The notes: generated by a model not told the origin, from the letters alone. A stretch of 64,000 nt of DNA from an uncultured Candidatus Saccharibacteria bacterium (GCA_964631935.1 CAZWAV010000001.1:116482-180481), one strand, 5' to 3'. Shown: positions 5,792-60,932, numbered from the stretch's first letter. A program made the numbers and translations.

Positions 5792-6477
5792 CTGAAGTAA
5801 TACCTGCAATTTTAGTTGAAGATTTTGAAGAACTCAGAGCGAGTATATCTCGCGTTGTAAGTGTTGCTCGAACTGTACAAGTTGATATTTGTGATGGCAA
5901 ATTCACTCCCTACGCTAGTTGGCCAATGCAAGGAAGCGATGAACGGAGCGTCCAAGGTATCTTAAACGAAGAAGAAGGGCTACCTTACTGGGATTCACTC
6001 GATTTTGAATTTGATCTTATGGTTATAAATGCACACGAGCAGTTTGAGTTTTTTACTAGACTAGGTGCTAAAAGAATAGTATTTCACATTGAAGCAGAAT
6101 TAAATAAAGATAAATTCAAAGAATTTTTAGAAGGCATGGATATGTATTTCCGTGAAAATGTACAGATAGGTGTAGCTATAAATACCACGACTCCAGTTAG
6201 TGAACTTGACTCGATAATTTCTCATATCGATTTTGTACAGTGTATGGGCATAGAAAGTATTGGTCACCAAGGTGAACCATTCGACGAGAGAGTGTTAGAT
6301 CAGATAAAATCATTGCGAGCAAAGTATCCAGAGCTTATAATAAGCGTAGATGGAAGTGTAAATGAAAAGACTGCACCACTTCTTGTCAAAGCCGGAGCAA
6401 ATAGATTAGTGGTGGGGTCTGCATTGATGGCAAGCCTTGATGTACGCGAAACCATAAAGAATTTAGAAAGTTTATAA
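5788..6477 (+). CDS. ribulose-phosphate-binding barrel protein, probable ribulose-phosphate 3-epimerase-like
   Basis: 229 aa. It overlaps the rpiB stop by 4 nt and sits in pentose-phosphate context. The DICDGKFTP motif resembles Rpe DxxDGxFVP, but the match is divergent. Confidence 0.5.
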   Translation: MTEVIPAILVEDFEELRASISRVVSVARTVQVDICDGKFTPYASWPMQGSDERSVQGILNEEEGLPYWDSLDFEFDLMVINAHEQFEFFTRLGAKRIVFHIEAELNKDKFKEFLEGMDMYFRENVQIGVAINTTTPVSELDSIISHIDFVQCMGIESIGHQGEPFDERVLDQIKSLRAKYPELIISVDGSVNEKTAPLLVKAGANRLVVGSALMASLDVRETIKNLESL

Positions 6478-13376: not shown

Positions 13377-13859
13377 ATGAAAAGCAAAACATTGTCTGTA
13401 AAAAAATCTAAGACAGGAATGGGTTTATTTGCTGAGAAAAATTTTAAATCTGGAGATTTAATTGTAGAACTCAAAGGTAAATTAATAACCTGTTATGAAG
13501 ATGAAAATATAGATGAGGAAACCAGATCAAATACTATAAGATTTAATAATGAGAAATTTTTAAGTCCAAAAGGGGAGATTGGTGAAATGGTAAATCATTC
13601 ATGTAATCCAAACAGTAAAATTACGAAAAAGAACAATAAGCTTGTTCTCATTGCTATTAAACCTATCGGAAAGGGAACAGAAATTTTCTTTGATTACTCA
13701 ACAGTACTTGCAAATGATGATATATGGACTATGAAATGTAAGTGTGGGGAGAACAACTGTAGAAAAGTAGTGAAGAAATTTAATTCATTATCTAAAAAGC
13801 TTAGAAATAACTATATAGAATATAGTATAGTTCCAAAATATATTTTAAGAATAAAATAA
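13377..13859 (+). CDS. SET-domain protein (putative protein-lysine methyltransferase)
   Basis: 160 aa. NHSCNPN and FFDY motifs plus a Cys-rich post-SET CKCGENNCRK. Confidence 0.7.
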   Translation: MKSKTLSVKKSKTGMGLFAEKNFKSGDLIVELKGKLITCYEDENIDEETRSNTIRFNNEKFLSPKGEIGEMVNHSCNPNSKITKKNNKLVLIAIKPIGKGTEIFFDYSTVLANDDIWTMKCKCGENNCRKVVKKFNSLSKKLRNNYIEYSIVPKYILRIK

Positions 13860-26898: not shown

Positions 26899-27465
26899 AT
26901 GGATCCAATAAATCAGGCTAGTGGTGGTTCAAAGAAAGGGTTATATATCGGTATTGGTATTGTGGCTATTTTAGTTCTTGGTTTTCTATTGCGTAATTCA
27001 TTTGGTATGACACGCAATGTTAGTGTCGGTGGGTATAACGCAGAGGTTACTAAGAAATTAGATGGTTCAACAACTTATAAAAGTGATTATGGTACAGCAA
27101 CCGTAAATAGCAATAAGTGGCCAGACAACTGGCCAACAGATGTACCTAAATATAGTAATTCTACTGTCACAACCGCTGGAACAACAAATGCACAAGCTGG
27201 CCTAGAAGCATTTAACGTTGTATTTACAACTTCTGACAATTCTCAAACTGTACTCGATTTCTATAAGAGTGGGTTAACATCTTCTGGTTGGGTATCTCTG
27301 TATTCAGGTAAAGCGATTACTGGTACACAAGTCGGAGCAAATATCACTGTTAGCGCAAAGAAAGACAAGAGGAATGTTAGTCTAGTAATCACAGATTTAG
27401 GTGGCGGACAGACAAGAGCCACTCTAATGACTTACACAATGCCAGAAGTCAAAACTGGGCTGTAA
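26899..27465 (+). CDS. hypothetical membrane-anchored protein
   Basis: 188 aa with an N-terminal TM (LYIGIGIVAILVLGFLL) and a T/S-rich extracytoplasmic region. Confidence 0.35.
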   Translation: MDPINQASGGSKKGLYIGIGIVAILVLGFLLRNSFGMTRNVSVGGYNAEVTKKLDGSTTYKSDYGTATVNSNKWPDNWPTDVPKYSNSTVTTAGTTNAQAGLEAFNVVFTTSDNSQTVLDFYKSGLTSSGWVSLYSGKAITGTQVGANITVSAKKDKRNVSLVITDLGGGQTRATLMTYTMPEVKTGL

Positions 27466-27532
27466 TCTCTTAATAAAAACCCTTATTATTTAATAGGGGT
27501 TTTTATATTTATAGTTATCCACAGATATTCTC

Positions 27533-27561
27533 TTGACTGTGAACGAGCGTTCACATATACT
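27533..27561 (+). promoter_or_regulatory. sigma70-type promoter (TTGACT-17-TATACT) with embedded Cheo-type LexA box TGTGAACGAGCGTTCACA (27538..27555)
   Basis: The perfect palindrome GAAC-N4-GTTC fills the -35/-10 spacer upstream of the small-ORF/lexA operon. Confidence 0.6.
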
Positions 27562-27599
27562 GTATATGTAGTCGATTTAGTAATAAATCAATAAAATAT

Positions 27600-27806
27600 A
27601 TGAACAGAGAACAATACGTCAAAATAATAGAGAGGGAATTGCATAACCTCAACAAGAGAATCGACATGAAGATTCTCCAAGGTGTAGAATACAGGAGAGA
27701 GGCTCGCGAGCACAAGATACTACAGAAGAAAATGCTTCAGCATTCTCGAAAGAGTTTCTTTGGAAAGTTTATATCTGCAGTACCTCAATTTCTAATATTT
27801 TTCTAA
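27600..27806 (+). CDS. small hypothetical protein co-transcribed with lexA (possible SOS-induced membrane-targeted peptide)
   Basis: 68 aa. Charged helical N-part and a hydrophobic C-tail (FFGKFISAVPQFLIFF). Its stop lies 2 nt before the lexA ATG. Confidence 0.45.
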   Translation: MNREQYVKIIERELHNLNKRIDMKILQGVEYRREAREHKILQKKMLQHSRKSFFGKFISAVPQFLIFF

Positions 27807-27808
27807 TT

Positions 27809-28375
27809 ATGCAAAACGAATACAAAAATAAACTCCTATCTTTTTATAATAGAGAAAAGCGCATGCCTACATATACTGAAATGATGCGTCTTTTCGGTTT
27901 CAAATCCAAGAATGCAGTTGCGAGACTAGTCGATAAATTTATCGATGCAGGTTTAGTTGCCAAAGATCACCTAGGTAGGCTTGTTCCAGATCAATCATTC
28001 GATAGTATTCCAATGTTGGGACTCGTCAAAGCTGGCTTTCCATCAGACGTTGCCGAAGAATCTCGTGATACAGTGAACCTCGATGAATATTTAGTTACAA
28101 AGAAAGACAATACCTACATGCTCGAAGTTGATGGTGATTCCATGATTGATGCACACATTGCCGATGGCGATATGGTCCTTGTTGAGAAGACAGACAAAGC
28201 CAAAGACGGTCAAATAGTTATCGCCGACGTAGATGGTGAATTCACAATGAAATATTTCCGTAAGAGTGGCGACAAAGTGTGGCTTGAACCTGCCAATAAA
28301 GATTTCAAAAATATCTATCCTGTTACTTATCTAACTATCACTGCCGTTGTGAAAGCCGTCATTCGCAAGTACTAA
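27809..28375 (+). CDS. lexA: LexA repressor (S24 peptidase)
   Basis: 188 aa. N-terminal wHTH, cleavage-site region and catalytic Ser in VDGDSM with Lys in FTMKYF. Confidence 0.85.
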   Translation: MQNEYKNKLLSFYNREKRMPTYTEMMRLFGFKSKNAVARLVDKFIDAGLVAKDHLGRLVPDQSFDSIPMLGLVKAGFPSDVAEESRDTVNLDEYLVTKKDNTYMLEVDGDSMIDAHIADGDMVLVEKTDKAKDGQIVIADVDGEFTMKYFRKSGDKVWLEPANKDFKNIYPVTYLTITAVVKAVIRKY

Positions 28376-28389
28376 TGTTACAATAGCTT

Positions 28390-30060
28390 ATGACTCAAGC
28401 ACAGGCACTTGCCATTATGAAGACAGGAGTGAATGTGTACCTCACAGGATCTGCTGGAAGTGGAAAGACTTATCTTCTCAATCAATATATTTCATACCTA
28501 AGCGACCACGACATCCCCGTGGCTGTTACTGCATCCACTGGCATTGCTGCTACTCACATGAACGGCATGACCATCCACGGCTGGGCAGGTATTGGCATCA
28601 AAGATACCATGGATGAGCACGATATCGAACTCTTAGAAGGCAAGCAATACTTATGGAAGAGATTCGAGAAAGCTCGAGTGCTTATTATCGATGAAGTCTC
28701 TATGCTTCACGCACATCGTCTCGATATCGTCGAGCGTGTATGCCGAAGATTTAAAAGAAGCGATAAGCCTTTTGGAGGATTACAAGTTATTCTCTCTGGT
28801 GATTTCTTTCAGCTTCCTCCGATCAATCGTTCAAATGAACCAGATCTGAAAGACATGGTCCTCTATAGCGAGGCGTGGCGCATAATGGCTCCAGCTATTT
28901 GCTACCTGACTGAACAACACCGCCAAGACGATGAGATGCTCACAGGTATACTCAATGCTATACGCGACAATTCTATAGACACACTTCATTACGAAGAATT
29001 AGAGAAAAGATTAAATGCCGAGCTTGCAGATGGTGTACGCCCGACAAAGCTCTACACCCACAACGCCAATGTCGACACGGAGAACAGTGCCGAACTCGGA
29101 TCAATAAAAAGCGATGAGAAAATGTACAAGATGACTTCGACCGGTCCTGAGGTACTTGTAGAAATATTAAAGAAGAGTTGCTTAGCTCATGAAGAATTAC
29201 GACTGAAAGTCGGAGCAGAAGTCATGTGCATCAAGAATAATTTCGAAGCCGGATATGTGAATGGCTCAAGAGGTAAGGTCATCGCATTCCTAGATTCAGA
29301 TAATACTCCGATTATAGAGCTCTATAATGGCAAGACCATATACGCTACACCTGAGACATGGGCCATAGAAGAAAATGGTAAGGAGAAGGCGAGCATCAGC
29401 CAGTTACCGATACGCCTGGCTTGGGCTATTACTATCCATAAGAGCCAAGGTATATCACTCGATAATGCTGAGATAGACCTCTCTCGAGCTTTTGCCTATG
29501 GTATGGGATATGTAGCGCTCTCACGCGTGCGTACCCTCGCTGGTATTCGACTTATAGGGTTCAATCCTGACTCTCTTCGTGTTGACCCGAAAGTCTTAGA
29601 ATTCGACCAAGATCTTCGCAATGAAAGTACTCAGAATGAACTCATGTTCGGCAAGTTAAAGAAAGGCGAGCAAGAGAAACTTGAACATGATTTCATTTCT
29701 CGTATGGGTGGAATGATAAAGAAAGGCGACAAGAGAAAAGAAGCTCCGGTTAAAATTTCAACTGTTATGGTGACTAAAGAATTACTTGATCAAGGCAAAT
29801 CCATAAAGGAGATCTGCAAAGCACGAGATCTGACCCCAGGTACCATCACTCACCATATCGAACAGATCATCGAGCAATATCCAGAAACAAATATTTCTCA
29901 TATCAAGCCAAAACAAAAACATATAGACATAGTAAAGAAAGCTAACTCCACGCTCGAAGGTGAAGAAGTAGGGAAGTTAAGTCCAATCAAAATGATATTA
30001 GAGAAAGATGGGCACAAGTTATCATTTGAAGATATAAGATTGGCTAAATTATTTATATGA
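28390..30060 (+). CDS. Pif1/RecD-family ATP-dependent DNA helicase with C-terminal HTH domain
   Basis: 556 aa. Walker A LTGSAGSGKTYLL, Walker B LIIDEVSM and motif ITIHKSQG typical of SF1B helicases. It has a C-terminal HTH-like tail. Confidence 0.8.
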   Translation: MTQAQALAIMKTGVNVYLTGSAGSGKTYLLNQYISYLSDHDIPVAVTASTGIAATHMNGMTIHGWAGIGIKDTMDEHDIELLEGKQYLWKRFEKARVLIIDEVSMLHAHRLDIVERVCRRFKRSDKPFGGLQVILSGDFFQLPPINRSNEPDLKDMVLYSEAWRIMAPAICYLTEQHRQDDEMLTGILNAIRDNSIDTLHYEELEKRLNAELADGVRPTKLYTHNANVDTENSAELGSIKSDEKMYKMTSTGPEVLVEILKKSCLAHEELRLKVGAEVMCIKNNFEAGYVNGSRGKVIAFLDSDNTPIIELYNGKTIYATPETWAIEENGKEKASISQLPIRLAWAITIHKSQGISLDNAEIDLSRAFAYGMGYVALSRVRTLAGIRLIGFNPDSLRVDPKVLEFDQDLRNESTQNELMFGKLKKGEQEKLEHDFISRMGGMIKKGDKRKEAPVKISTVMVTKELLDQGKSIKEICKARDLTPGTITHHIEQIIEQYPETNISHIKPKQKHIDIVKKANSTLEGEEVGKLSPIKMILEKDGHKLSFEDIRLAKLFI

Positions 30061-30338
30061 TAAAAAAGAAAACTAAGAAATTAAGTTTGTTTACAGAGCG
30101 AGTACTAAATATTGTCTCTAGTATAAAGCGCGGTCAGACTATGACTTATAAAGAAGTGGCAGAGAGAGCCGGCAGCCCAGGGGCGGCCAGAGCTGTAGGA
30201 TCTATTATGAAAGCCAATTACAAGCCAGGTGTACCTTGTCATCGTGTTATCCGAAGTGATGGAATTATAGGTGAGTATAATCGTGGCGGCCCTAGAGAGA
30301 AATATAAAAAGCTCAAGAAAGAAGGTGCAATAAAGTAG
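30057..30338 (+). CDS. methylated-DNA--protein-cysteine methyltransferase (MGMT/Ogt) DNA-binding domain protein, stand-alone C-domain
   Basis: 93 aa. PCHRVI active-site cysteine motif and the TYKEVAERAG HTH. Its start overlaps the helicase stop (ATGA). Confidence 0.75.
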   Translation: MIKKKTKKLSLFTERVLNIVSSIKRGQTMTYKEVAERAGSPGAARAVGSIMKANYKPGVPCHRVIRSDGIIGEYNRGGPREKYKKLKKEGAIK

Positions 30339-31220: not shown

Positions 31221-31769
31221 ATGCAAACACGTTTAATTTCAATAATCATAGGTGCGGTACTCATAGTAAGTATGGGGTCTTTAGTTTATAAGACAAAAAA
31301 GCCAGTAATCTTGCCTACTGAGGAAGGCACAACAAGCGAATCACTCCTTAATGACAATTCCAAACCTGCTCAAACGACTACTCCAGTAAAGCCTAGCACT
31401 CAGCCATCAGTCAAAAAGTATGTATCAGACGATGATGATGACGAAAGTGATGACGATGACAGAGGTAGTACAACAAGCCCAGTAGTAACTCCAAAACCAG
31501 TCACCACCACTCCACCACCTACTACAACAGGAGGAGGTATTACTCTTGCGACCATAGCTAAACATAATTCACGTTCAAGCTGTTGGTCAGCTATCAATGG
31601 TAGTGTGTACGACCTGACAAGCTGGATACCGAATCACCCAGGAGGAGAGCAGGCTATTCTTTCACTTTGTGGTATTGATGGATCAAATGGCTACAATAGT
31701 CAGCATGGTGGGAGCTCAAAGCCGGCTAGAATACTCGGAGGATTTAAAATTGGAACTTTTGCAAAGTAA
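31221..31769 (+). CDS. membrane-anchored cytochrome b5-like heme-binding domain protein
   Basis: 182 aa. N-terminal TM, a D/E run (DDDDDESDDDD), a T/P-rich linker, and a C-terminal cyt-b5 fold with YDLTSWIPNHPGG. Confidence 0.6.
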   Translation: MQTRLISIIIGAVLIVSMGSLVYKTKKPVILPTEEGTTSESLLNDNSKPAQTTTPVKPSTQPSVKKYVSDDDDDESDDDDRGSTTSPVVTPKPVTTTPPPTTTGGGITLATIAKHNSRSSCWSAINGSVYDLTSWIPNHPGGEQAILSLCGIDGSNGYNSQHGGSSKPARILGGFKIGTFAK

Positions 31770-32519: not shown

Positions 32520-32936
32520 GTGGTATTATTGGTGTATATGAACAATTCATACAACTGGTACTCTACTCTTATAAAGCCTACCTGGTCACCACCTTCATGG
32601 CTTTTTGGGCCAGTATGGACATTCCTTTATATTCTTATCACCATATCTTTTGGTAAAGTATTCATGATGCTATATCAGAAGCAAATATCTTTTATGGTTG
32701 CGCTTCCATTTATCTTAAATCTTATTTTCAACTTTTCATTTACTTATTTTCAATTCGGATTAAAGAACAACCTCCTCGCTGCCATCGATATAGTCCTTAT
32801 ACTCACTACCATCATCTGGGCGATGATCGCCATCTTCCCATATGCCAAGTGGATTACTTATATTCAGATACCGTACCTGCTTTGGGTATCATTTGCGACG
32901 ATCCTACAGCTAACTATCACTTACTTAAATAGATAA
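32520..32936 (+). CDS. TspO/MBR family tryptophan-rich sensory protein
   Basis: 138 aa. WYSTLIKPTWSPPSWLFGPVWTFLY is diagnostic of TspO. Confidence 0.7.
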   Translation: MVLLVYMNNSYNWYSTLIKPTWSPPSWLFGPVWTFLYILITISFGKVFMMLYQKQISFMVALPFILNLIFNFSFTYFQFGLKNNLLAAIDIVLILTTIIWAMIAIFPYAKWITYIQIPYLLWVSFATILQLTITYLNR

Positions 32937-41631: not shown

Positions 41632-42261
41632 ATGAAACAACATAGATTTGAAGCACTTGCAGATAGCATCTTTGCTATTGTTATGACCATCTTAGTGTTT
41701 GAAATACGAGTGCCGATATATGACGGCATAGTGAGCGACAAAACTCTTTTTGACGCAATTATGAACATTTATCCTCTTTTCCTAAGTTACCTACTGAGTT
41801 TCTCTCTGCTTTTCACTTACTGGAGAGCTCATCATTTTATAACTTCAGTACTAGCAAAAAATATTGATCTCAAGTTGTCTAATTTAAACGCATTATTTTT
41901 CCTTTTTGTAGGACTTGTGCCATTCTCATCACATCTTCTCGGTGCATATAGCTATACTGAGACAGCAATAATAACTTTCGCTGTAAATATAATTTTAATC
42001 GGCTTAACACTCTACGCAATGCGCCAGCATATAATAAATTCACCAGAAATTAAAAATGCACCCACCACACATGTGGAGAATGCTCATGCAAACGTACGCA
42101 CACTCTTGCCTGTAGTAGTCGCTCTTATTGCTATTACTGTATCATTCTTTGATAAACCAGTAGCCTTGGCCTTCTTTACAATAGCGATACTTTTTAACCT
42201 ATCGAGCCGAAGTACTCACTACATGTTCGTAGTGGTTGATACGCTAAACCCTAATAAATAA
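41632..42261 (+). CDS. DUF1211/TMEM175-family membrane protein (putative K+ channel)
   Basis: 209 aa. FEALADSIFAIVMTILVFE, RxxxFSDGxxAIxxTLL-like signature. Confidence 0.6.
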   Translation: MKQHRFEALADSIFAIVMTILVFEIRVPIYDGIVSDKTLFDAIMNIYPLFLSYLLSFSLLFTYWRAHHFITSVLAKNIDLKLSNLNALFFLFVGLVPFSSHLLGAYSYTETAIITFAVNIILIGLTLYAMRQHIINSPEIKNAPTTHVENAHANVRTLLPVVVALIAITVSFFDKPVALAFFTIAILFNLSSRSTHYMFVVVDTLNPNK

Positions 42262-59615: not shown

Positions 59616-60932
59616 ATGGCAAAGAAAAAGGCAACCAAGACTTTCGTTTTGGATACAAATGTTATATTGCATGACTCTTCATGTATATATAAATTTGAGG
59701 AACACAATATTGTATTACCTATACAAGTTATCGAAGAACTCGATTCCTTTAAGAAAGGATTCGAAACGATAAACTTTCACGCAAGAGAATTTTGTCGAAT
59801 GCTCGACGACCTTTCTTCAGATAAAATATTTAATGGTGGGGTGTCTTTGGGTAAAAACTTGGGAAAACTAAGAATATCTCTTTCTCTTCCATGGCACGAT
59901 ACTGTTAAAGAAAACCTGCGTGTGCAAACTGTCGATGCAGAAATTATAAACCTGGCATATTGTTTAAATGATGGCAAGAAAGACGGTATTGTGATCATAG
60001 TTTCAAAAGACGTAAACCTGCGTTTGAAGGCTAAGGCATTAGGGGTTATGGCTCAAGATTTTCTCCACGAGACTGTTGTTAATATTGATTTATTGTTCGA
60101 AGAAGTAAAAATCATTGATGCGTCAAAGGAATTGATAGATAACTTGTATAAAGACGCAAATCCAGTTCCTCACATAATTAAAGGCGCAAAAGAAAACCAG
60201 AATTTTATTTTAAAGAACGACAAACAATCAGTACTTGTCAGAAATAAAGATGGCTCATTAAAAGCAATCCTAAAAGACAAATTGTATGCTTTTAACTTAA
60301 AAGCCAAAAATTCAGAACAAGCATTTGCGATGGATGCTTTACTTGATCCATCAATAACATTGGTAGCGATTGAAGCTAAAGCCGGTACGGGCAAGACAAT
60401 AATTTCATTGGCTTCCGGATTACAGCAATTAAAAGACAATCGTTATACAAAAGTATTTTTTTCACGTCAAACCATTTCTATGGGAGATCGTGAGATTGGT
60501 TTCTTGAAGGGAGGCATTGATGAAAAAATTGGCCCATTTATGAATGGGATGAAAGACAACCTTGATGTCCTCAGCAATCTTCATAAAACCAATGATGAGA
60601 AGATTAAAAAATTTCAGACTGCTGAGTTGCTTTTAGTCGAGCCACTGCCATATATTAGAGGCAGGAGCTTAAATAAAGTATTCTTTATTATTGACGAAGC
60701 TCAAAACCTTACACCACACGAGGTAAAAACCATAGTAACCCGTGCAGGAGAAGGTACAAAGATAGTGTTGATTGGTGATACTCACCAAATAGATCATCCT
60801 TATCTTGACCAGAGATCAAATGGATTAAGCTACTTAATCCAGAAATTTAAAAACCGGTCGTGTTTCAGTCATGTACATTTAATAAAGAATGAAAGATCAG
60901 CACTAGCTGAACTTGCAGGAGAACTTTTGTAA
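59616..60932 (+). CDS. PhoH2-type protein: N-terminal PIN domain fused to PhoH-like ATPase
   Basis: The PIN acidic residues sit in VLDTNVILHD. The PhoH region has Walker A EAKAGTGKT and Walker B FIIDEAQN. Confidence 0.8.
   Translation: MAKKKATKTFVLDTNVILHDSSCIYKFEEHNIVLPIQVIEELDSFKKGFETINFHAREFCRMLDDLSSDKIFNGGVSLGKNLGKLRISLSLPWHDTVKENLRVQTVDAEIINLAYCLNDGKKDGIVIIVSKDVNLRLKAKALGVMAQDFLHETVVNIDLLFEEVKIIDASKELIDNLYKDANPVPHIIKGAKENQNFILKNDKQSVLVRNKDGSLKAILKDKLYAFNLKAKNSEQAFAMDALLDPSITLVAIEAKAGTGKTIISLASGLQQLKDNRYTKVFFSRQTISMGDREIGFLKGGIDEKIGPFMNGMKDNLDVLSNLHKTNDEKIKKFQTAELLLVEPLPYIRGRSLNKVFFIIDEAQNLTPHEVKTIVTRAGEGTKIVLIGDTHQIDHPYLDQRSNGLSYLIQKFKNRSCFSHVHLIKNERSALAELAGELL

Follow-up and report, generated by a model that had tools for sequence, protein, structure and literature searches.

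The 64,000-nucleotide stretch GCA_964631935.1 CAZWAV010000001.1:116482-180481 (hereafter the window), listed under an uncultured Candidatus Saccharibacteria bacterium, contains at positions 27,533 to 30,338 a promoter with an embedded palindromic box, followed by four genes on the same strand: a small open reading frame (ORF), lexA, a Pif1-family helicase gene and a gene for a stand-alone MGMT domain. Judged by comparison with related genomes, this locus is very likely the autoregulated lexA (SOS) operon of a Paceibacteria bacterium with a small genome (Candidate Phyla Radiation, CPR; Patescibacteria). The switch is an ordinary one, i.e. a conventional, well-conserved LexA-autoregulated operon, with the small ORF and lexA as its conserved core and the helicase and MGMT genes as lineage-specific add-ons. 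CPR bacteria represent a large share of bacterial diversity and almost all of them are uncultured, so their regulation must be read from sequence; the present locus provides a phylogenetically footprinted operator-promoter pair for the CPR damage response. The only novel lead of the locus is the small ORF.

As seen in Table 1, the promoter reads TTGACT-17-TATACT with the box in its spacer, and the coordinates given for it in an earlier note on this DNA were verified. The 17-nt spacer (27539-27555) has the sequence GTGAACGAGCGTTCACA, and the core of the putative operator, GAAC-GAGC-GTTC at 27541-27552, is a GAAC/GTTC inverted repeat with 4 bp between its halves. The earlier note had described a perfect 18-bp palindrome. 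The 18-mer that it quoted, TGTGAACGAGCGTTCACA, corresponds to 27538-27555 and has the reverse complement TGTGAACGCTCGTTCACA; its self-complementarity is 16/18 (8+2+8), the AG in the centre breaking the symmetry, so that the palindrome is imperfect. The evolutionarily conserved unit, as delimited by the relatives, is GTGAAC-N4-GTTCAC at 27539-27554.

Statistics obtained from the window are mixed. The 64 kb contain a single GTGAAC-N4-GTTCAC when up to 1 mismatch is allowed, where 0.06 would be expected. The bare GAAC-N4-GTTC was counted twice (0.65 expected), and a promoter-consensus scan returned 15 sites against 15.1 expected from shuffles, neither being significant by itself. The case for the operator therefore rests on conservation. 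Two further sites were rejected as operators. The second exact GAAC-N4-GTTC, at 29638-29649 (GAACTCATGTTC) within the helicase coding sequence, recurs in one relative (L017) and has no GT/AC flanks; the simplest explanation for it is a chance match constrained by coding. A 3-mismatch box at 59990, inside a PIN-PhoH gene, is attributed to chance, 2.6 such sites being expected.

The 80 most similar loci, all from metagenome-assembled genomes labelled Paceibacteria, Nomurabacteria or Patescibacteria, were used for comparison. When the palindrome was sought in these orthologous loci, it was found at the same promoter position in 75 of the 76 Paceibacteria loci with readable upstream sequence. Their common layout consists of TTGAC(n) or TTGCAT, GTG(A/T)AC-N4-GTTCAC and TATA(C/A)T, followed by the small ORF and lexA. 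Where the box seems to be missing, the locus lies at a contig end (L017, L020, L023, L032, L045) or, in L041, the stretch is masked by N. The arms of the box are unvarying except for one base in four loci, while the four central bases take at least 10 forms. In the neighbouring small ORF, synonymous positions have come close to saturation or passed it (dS 0.8-2.6; no defined value for 50 of 73 pairs), and the conservation of the arms is therefore selective. Altogether 77 boxes are present in 740 kb (the 80 loci and the window); 75 lie at the small-ORF/lexA promoter and the other two are both in L042, one before dinB (Y-family polymerase) and one before the gene for a secreted protein without a family match. 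The latter protein (L042:1203-2342, behind its box-bearing promoter) has 369 aa, a signal-peptide-like N-terminus and no Pfam match.

Additionally, metagenomes were scanned for the box abutting TATAAT, which gave 120 sites. Most of these (85/120) drive lexA operons, comprising 36 with lexA alone, 28 with the small ORF then lexA, and 21 with lexA then dinB; at another 10 the gene driven is dinB by itself, and at several it is a UmuD-like S24 gene. No second box was found in the 647 kb around these sites, and in about 1.39 Mb of related DNA the boxes outside the sampled promoters are only the two in L042. This distribution suggests a very small regulon, essentially the lexA operon plus dinB, and the idea of a minimal damage module in the earlier note fits the rarity of the box (2 extra sites in ~1.39 Mb). 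Moreover, the box marks lexA, dinB and umuD-like promoters across lineages in which LexA is only 45-55% identical. These findings imply that GTGAAC-N4-GTTCAC can be regarded as the LexA operator for practical purposes, a reading well supported by comparison, and the architecture of LexA autorepression proposed earlier is upheld both by the orthologous loci and by the genes that the box fronts in the metagenome sample.

The lexA product itself matches the NCBIfam equivalog TIGR00498 with 127.8 bits (cut-off 110.95; protein residues 14-187, model positions 20-201 of 203) and Peptidase_S24 at 2.2e-29. The cleavage site Ala75-Gly76 (VKA75-G76FP) and the catalytic dyad Ser111 (GDS111M) and Lys148 (TMK148Y) align with VAAGEP, GMSM and VTVKRL of E. 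coli LexA, and residues 12-181 align to the solved Thermotoga LexA 3K2Z as well as to the E. coli protein. At the N-terminus, the TIGR00498 and 3K2Z alignments begin at residue 12-14, and the recognition-helix region is SKNAVARLVDKF. JGI and Logan metagenome contigs carry an identical LexA protein, and the order of the genes is the same there.

From these features the following course of regulation is proposed. A LexA dimer would bind GTGAAC-N4-GTTCAC, as geometry and conservation indicate, and since the box fills the spacer between -35 and -10, bound LexA must exclude RNA polymerase. Upon DNA damage, filaments of RecA on single-stranded DNA would stimulate self-cleavage of LexA at Ala75-Gly76 through Ser111 and Lys148, by analogy with the LexA family as regards RecA. 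The ensuing de-repression, likewise expected from the family, would allow the small ORF and lexA to be transcribed as a translationally coupled pair, and transcription would then continue into the helicase gene and the overlapping MGMT gene. The last two would also be transcribed, as a leaderless mRNA, from an extended -10 element of their own next to the lexA stop codon, probably at a basal level that SOS induction boosts.

Table 1. Coordinates of the features of the lexA locus, counted from the first nucleotide of the window
Feature	Position	Strand	Remarks
Terminator-like hairpin and T-run	27473-27506	+	15-pair stem, loop of 4, T-rich tail
-35 hexamer TTGACT	27533-27538	+	TTGAC(n) or TTGCAT at the equivalent place in orthologous loci
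Putative LexA operator GTGAAC-GAGC-GTTCAC	27539-27554	strandless	Occupies 16 of the 17 spacer nt
-10 hexamer TATACT	27556-27561	+	TATACT or TATAAT directly after the box conserved in relatives
AT-rich stretch from -10 hexamer to small-ORF ATG	27562-27599	+	38 nt; Shine-Dalgarno not obvious
Small ORF	27600-27806	+	68 aa; 2-nt gap to lexA; unannotated family of ~65 residues
lexA	27809-28375	+	188 aa; putative N-terminal winged-helix DNA-binding domain and S24 autopeptidase domain; 14-nt gap to helicase
Extended -10 element TGTTACAAT	28376-28384	+	Immediately after lexA stop, 5 nt before helicase ATG
Pif1-family helicase (superfamily 1B)	28390-30060	+	556 aa; C-terminal HTH_40 at residues 458-552; ATGA overlap with MGMT gene
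Stand-alone MGMT/Ogt C-terminal domain protein	30057-30338	+	93 aa; PCHRV active-site cysteine retained

The operator of Bacillus subtilis LexA/DinR is CGAAC-N4-GTTCG (Cheo box). The present locus shares with the Bacillus system the GAAC-N4-GTTC repeat overlapping the promoter of lexA itself and an S24 autopeptidase with an Ala-Gly site and a Ser/Lys dyad. However, the flanks are GT/AC in essentially all instances instead of C/G, the box fills the whole spacer, lexA stands second behind the small ORF, and the recognition-helix region is unmatched by Pfam LexA_DNA_bind. The label "Cheo-type" attached to the box in the earlier note is thus correct for the GAAC-N4-GTTC core, the flanks making the box a variant of the Bacillus consensus. 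In Geobacter, lexA-dinB operons are found. As in those operons, one LexA-repressed promoter here drives lexA and a damage-tolerance gene, an arrangement seen at the lexA-dinB sites of the metagenome sample and also in L056, L067 and L070; the cargo in the window differs, being a Pif1-type helicase and a mini-MGMT with their own promoter and not a Y-family polymerase. Within the Patescibacteria, the SOS network, the LexA motif and the compact regulon are said to have been treated in a comparative study by Sanchez-Osuna, Barbe and Erill (Environ Microbiol, 2017), and the operator motif was very probably published there already, which is assumed here. The 2017 study is cited in PMC8565304 and PMC7739468; the latter places it among cases with direct-repeat LexA motifs, so that at least some Patescibacteria would differ from the palindrome described here.

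The small ORF is, by its conservation, a real gene and an invariant partner of lexA. It lies directly upstream of lexA in 76 of the 80 sampled loci, and in the other four either upstream sequence is lacking or a more divergent copy stands behind a box. In most loci no more than 20 nt separate it from lexA, and in L207 and L209 the two genes overlap. Purifying selection is evident from a median ratio of nonsynonymous to synonymous substitution (dN/dS) of 0.11. A profile search of 1.8 billion representative proteins yielded 276 clusters of this family, nearly all of 60-75 aa, and six divergent members sampled through the small ORF alone (31-40% identical to the copy in the window) all stand immediately ahead of an S24/LexA gene, with a box in front. 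The family signature is N-x2-ID-x-KI-x2-G-x2-Y-x2-EA-x2-HK-x-L. In the AlphaFold model, residues 3-27 and 32-48 form a helical hairpin with predicted local distance difference test (pLDDT) values above 90, followed by a floppy tail, the overall pLDDT being 81. The hairpin carries a strong positive charge (about +6 over 50 residues), and the C-terminal tail, (K/R)(G/S)FFxRLF, has a net charge of +2.3 and about 4 aromatics per 18 residues. No match was obtained in Pfam or NCBIfam with the single sequence, in Pfam with 54 family members, or in a PDB profile search, and Foldseek with the AlphaFold model returned only generic helical hairpins at E>2. The idea of the tail as a transmembrane anchor was discarded, the longest uncharged run having a median of 5 residues.

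Some irregularities of this gene were also observed. An unrelated 66-aa ORF is inserted at L204:3715-3915, giving the order small ORF, 66-aa ORF, lexA, dinB. Gene callers treat the small ORF inconsistently: it is uncalled in L081, one of three otherwise identical assemblies, while in L207 its call was wrongly lengthened to 103 aa and runs across the operator. One homologue (P0122) is named "glutamate mutase epsilon subunit" in one source, an evident misannotation.

The helicase and MGMT genes are distributed much more narrowly. A helicase follows lexA in 38 of the 80 loci, all in a subclade with LexA at least 73% identical, and an MGMT homologue is present in 15 of the 80, about 9 of them within the operon. 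The MGMT gene follows the helicase in the window, L001, L004, L006 and L030; it stands directly after lexA in L032, L039, L041 and L044, where the helicase is absent, and after a DNA methylase in L024. In other loci, lexA is followed by dinB, a Fic protein gene or a housekeeping gene. The helicase matches PIF1 (PF05970, 3.5e-36), Pif1_2B_dom (PF21530, 1.4e-10) and HTH_40, with Walker A GSAGSGKT and Walker B DEVSM intact. The earlier assignment to a Pif1/RecD family with a helix-turn-helix tail holds for the PIF1 core and the HTH_40 tail but not for RecD or RecD2, whose equivalogs scored far below cut-off (TIGR01448, 63.8 bits against 500; TIGR01447, 38.7 against 310). From its family, a role at stalled forks or structured DNA is probable. 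Among solved structures, the protein is closest to human PIF1 6HPT (E=5e-76, residues 3-411), markedly ahead of Bacteroides Pif1 (E=1e-50).

The last protein of the operon matches DNA_binding_1 (PF01035, 7.7e-27) over model positions 2-81 of 81, the match beginning at residue 12, and TIGR00589 with 74 bits (cut-off 46.4). It aligns to residues 94-161 of human MGMT, and its PCHRV corresponds to human Cys145. The N-terminal domain of full-length Ogt/Ada is absent (PRK10286, 50 bits against a cut-off of 192), and the description of an Ogt C-domain-only protein was found to be accurate, DNA_binding_1 being its only domain. In alkyltransferase-like proteins (ATLs) the acceptor cysteine is replaced by Trp or Ala. 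The present protein resembles ATLs in its DNA_binding_1 fold and its size (~100 aa) but keeps PCHRV; as the active-site cysteine is retained (VPCHRV), it is not an ATL. By family, this Cys-containing mini-MGMT probably reverses O6-alkylguanine, the activity of a C-domain-only form being uncertain. In E. coli, ada and ogt are not known to be controlled by LexA, and literature searches on LexA-controlled Pif1 or ogt gave nothing relevant. The remark that a helicase and an MGMT are not textbook SOS content is shared here. A convergent gene starts 4 nt past the MGMT stop codon.

An internal promoter is predicted before the helicase. The 14-nt spacer between lexA and the helicase gene consists of TGTTACAAT-AGCTT, followed by the ATG, and TGnTA(T/C)A(A/C)T occurs 5-10 nt before the helicase ATG in 29 of the 38 relatives. 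The same geometry is found elsewhere in the window: 16 of 73 genes have an extended -10 (TGnTAnnAT) 5-8 nt upstream of their ATG, where chance would give about 0.6% per gene, e.g. at the gene starts 3488, 5357, 14623, 28390, 40487, 41071, 41632 and 42728 on the plus strand and 10745, 31158 and 34624 on the minus strand. Evidently this geometry is the genome's signature of widespread leaderless transcription, and tight gene spacing in this genome is therefore no proof of an operon; the lexA/helicase junction is a practical warning that closely spaced genes need not form one transcription unit. Between lexA and the helicase, some relatives have terminator-like hairpins and putative separate helicase promoters; such a hairpin comes after lexA in L013 and L022, where no box is present in the helicase region. 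A LexA box belonging to the helicase itself was sought where the two genes are apart, and none was found in L012-L016, L018, L022 and L031. Some of the inserts between lexA and the helicase have the two halves of an inverted repeat at their ends (e.g. cccgtacgaag...cttcgtacggg), and the second half stops exactly at the helicase ATG (L012:1176-1309, L022:~6150-6277, L031:5567-5698). The helicase and MGMT genes are thus probably transcribed in a LexA-independent, leaderless manner with SOS read-through in addition. Read-through is expected since the junction in the window leaves no room for a terminator, and because of the internal promoter the control of these two genes by LexA would not be strictly on or off.

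Several points weigh against the interpretation favoured here, namely an autoregulated lexA operon with a further promoter before the helicase. The whole case is comparative, and because the metagenome pattern required TATAAT right next to the box, sites within promoters are over-represented in that sample and other layouts are missed. The N-terminal domain of LexA has no match to Pfam LexA_DNA_bind at E<0.01, for which reason operator specificity is unreadable from the protein. A search of the 64-kb window for recA and other canonical SOS genes (uvr, dinB, ruv) found none of them. The unmatched Pfam model, together with the bare GAAC-N4-GTTC being not rare in the window, would agree with a site of some other regulator (e.g. 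the HTH_40 tail of the helicase) or with a chance or structural element. Such an origin is highly improbable, as the box is present in 42 loci without the helicase, accompanies lexA in most metagenome sites and otherwise dinB or UmuD-like genes, has arms that are invariant despite saturated neutral divergence, and lies in a promoter spacer, not after a gene. The internal promoter is also a consensus argument; if it is weak, the four genes would effectively be a single unit under the LexA-occluded promoter only, with the helicase and MGMT genes silent without damage. The three tight junctions reported earlier (a 2-nt gap, a 14-nt gap and an ATGA overlap) were all verified, no terminator-like site lies at them, lexA and the helicase are at most 27 nt apart in about 30 of the 38 relatives, and MGMT recurs directly after lexA in several relatives, all of which would be expected from a single unit. 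Such a unit is nevertheless rather unlikely in view of the extended -10 conserved before the helicase, which matches the leaderless signature of the genome, and of the two loci in which a terminator-like hairpin separates lexA from a helicase without a box. Direct LexA control of all four genes, as first proposed, therefore holds for the small ORF and lexA and for read-through beyond them; the helicase and MGMT genes have their own extended -10, and the helicase accompanies fewer than half of the sampled lexA genes.

As a dedicated SOS partner of LexA, the small ORF could act in several ways, of which an effector at the membrane or the division apparatus is ranked first, tentatively, and a modulator of LexA or RecA second, with still less confidence, the remaining probability falling to functions of other kinds. 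In the former case, a functional analogue of SulA, YneA, SosA, ChiZ or SidA, i.e. an SOS-induced division inhibitor targeted by its basic aromatic tail, is conceivable, since the small ORF comes first after the LexA box wherever it occurs and its tail motif resembles membrane-targeting helices of the MinD/FtsA type; besides the charge and aromatics given above, the tail has a hydrophobic moment exceeding that of shuffles in 76% of members. The amphipathicity is modest, though, compared with shuffled controls (0.55 vs 0.46), and the tail is not transmembrane. The monoderm division inhibitor genes yneA, sosA, chiZ and divS adjoin lexA, are divergent from it and encode an N-terminal membrane anchor. 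Like them, the small ORF is a small LexA-controlled gene adjoining lexA; unlike them, it is co-directional and upstream of lexA, has no transmembrane segment, and shows no homology to known inhibitors in Pfam, NCBIfam or PDB. Its co-transcription upstream of lexA would also imply basal expression, which is awkward for a division poison. A stoichiometric modulator with a role like that of DinI, RecX or gp7 of phage GIL01, tuning operator binding or self-cleavage, would agree with the obligate gene order, the tight coupling to lexA including the overlaps in L207 and L209, the linkage kept at about 31-40% identity of the small ORF, and the strongly basic hairpin. It seems unlikely all the same, as no structural or sequence similarity to known modulators was found and another CPR lineage has the same box and a ~197-aa LexA with no small ORF; because that sister lineage runs the same box without it, LexA is not intrinsically dependent on the small ORF. 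With due reservation, the 68-residue protein may represent a new component of the SOS response throughout the Paceibacteria, produced along with LexA and either arresting division at the membrane or tuning LexA/RecA; the minimal SOS unit of these reduced genomes would then comprise two proteins instead of LexA alone. Should it prove to act as an effector of SOS or as a cofactor of LexA, a pathway regarded as well understood would gain a new component.

Upstream of the SOS promoter, the terminator-like hairpin is predicted to close the gene at 26899-27465 and to insulate the promoter from upstream read-through. Downstream of it, the predicted transcription start at about 27568 gives the small ORF a leader of about 31 nt. 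Among 75 relatives, the stretch from -10 to ATG measures 36-42 nt in 38, while 4 are leaderless with 6 nt. This AT-rich leader is interrupted in several relatives by inserts of about 35-45 nt that are rich in GC and form hairpins (L009, L025, L029 and L033, in the 5' UTR of the small ORF); L018, L022, L031 and L036 are further loci with such inserts. Near-identical copies of them in different genomes suggest a small mobile or regulatory RNA element. Rfam and tRNA scans gave no match within or near the locus.

In the sister CPR lineage mentioned above (e.g. L084, L086, L091, L101, L106; ~45 metagenome loci), the ATG of SOS promoters is placed 6 nt after the -10 (leaderless), and dinB is often next in the operon. 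DNA methyltransferase genes were found directly behind box promoters in L133, L188, L190 and L199 (three N6_N4_Mtase and one C5), and a fifth after lexA at L024:5580-6443; control of methylases by LexA may thus be a recurring theme in this group of bacteria. In L103 and L128, a box promoter is followed by a gene for the small subunit of a phage terminase (Terminase_2), which starts 118-188 nt from the -10, so that the link is loose; these two loci may represent a LexA-controlled prophage or a phage of a CPR bacterium. Apart from the lexA locus, the window encodes, for a bacterium with a small genome, several domains of eukaryotic flavour: a SET-domain protein, a TMEM175-like K+ channel, a cytochrome b5-like protein with a long low-complexity linker, and TspO/MBR (at 13377-13859; 41632-42261; 31221-31769; 32520-32936).

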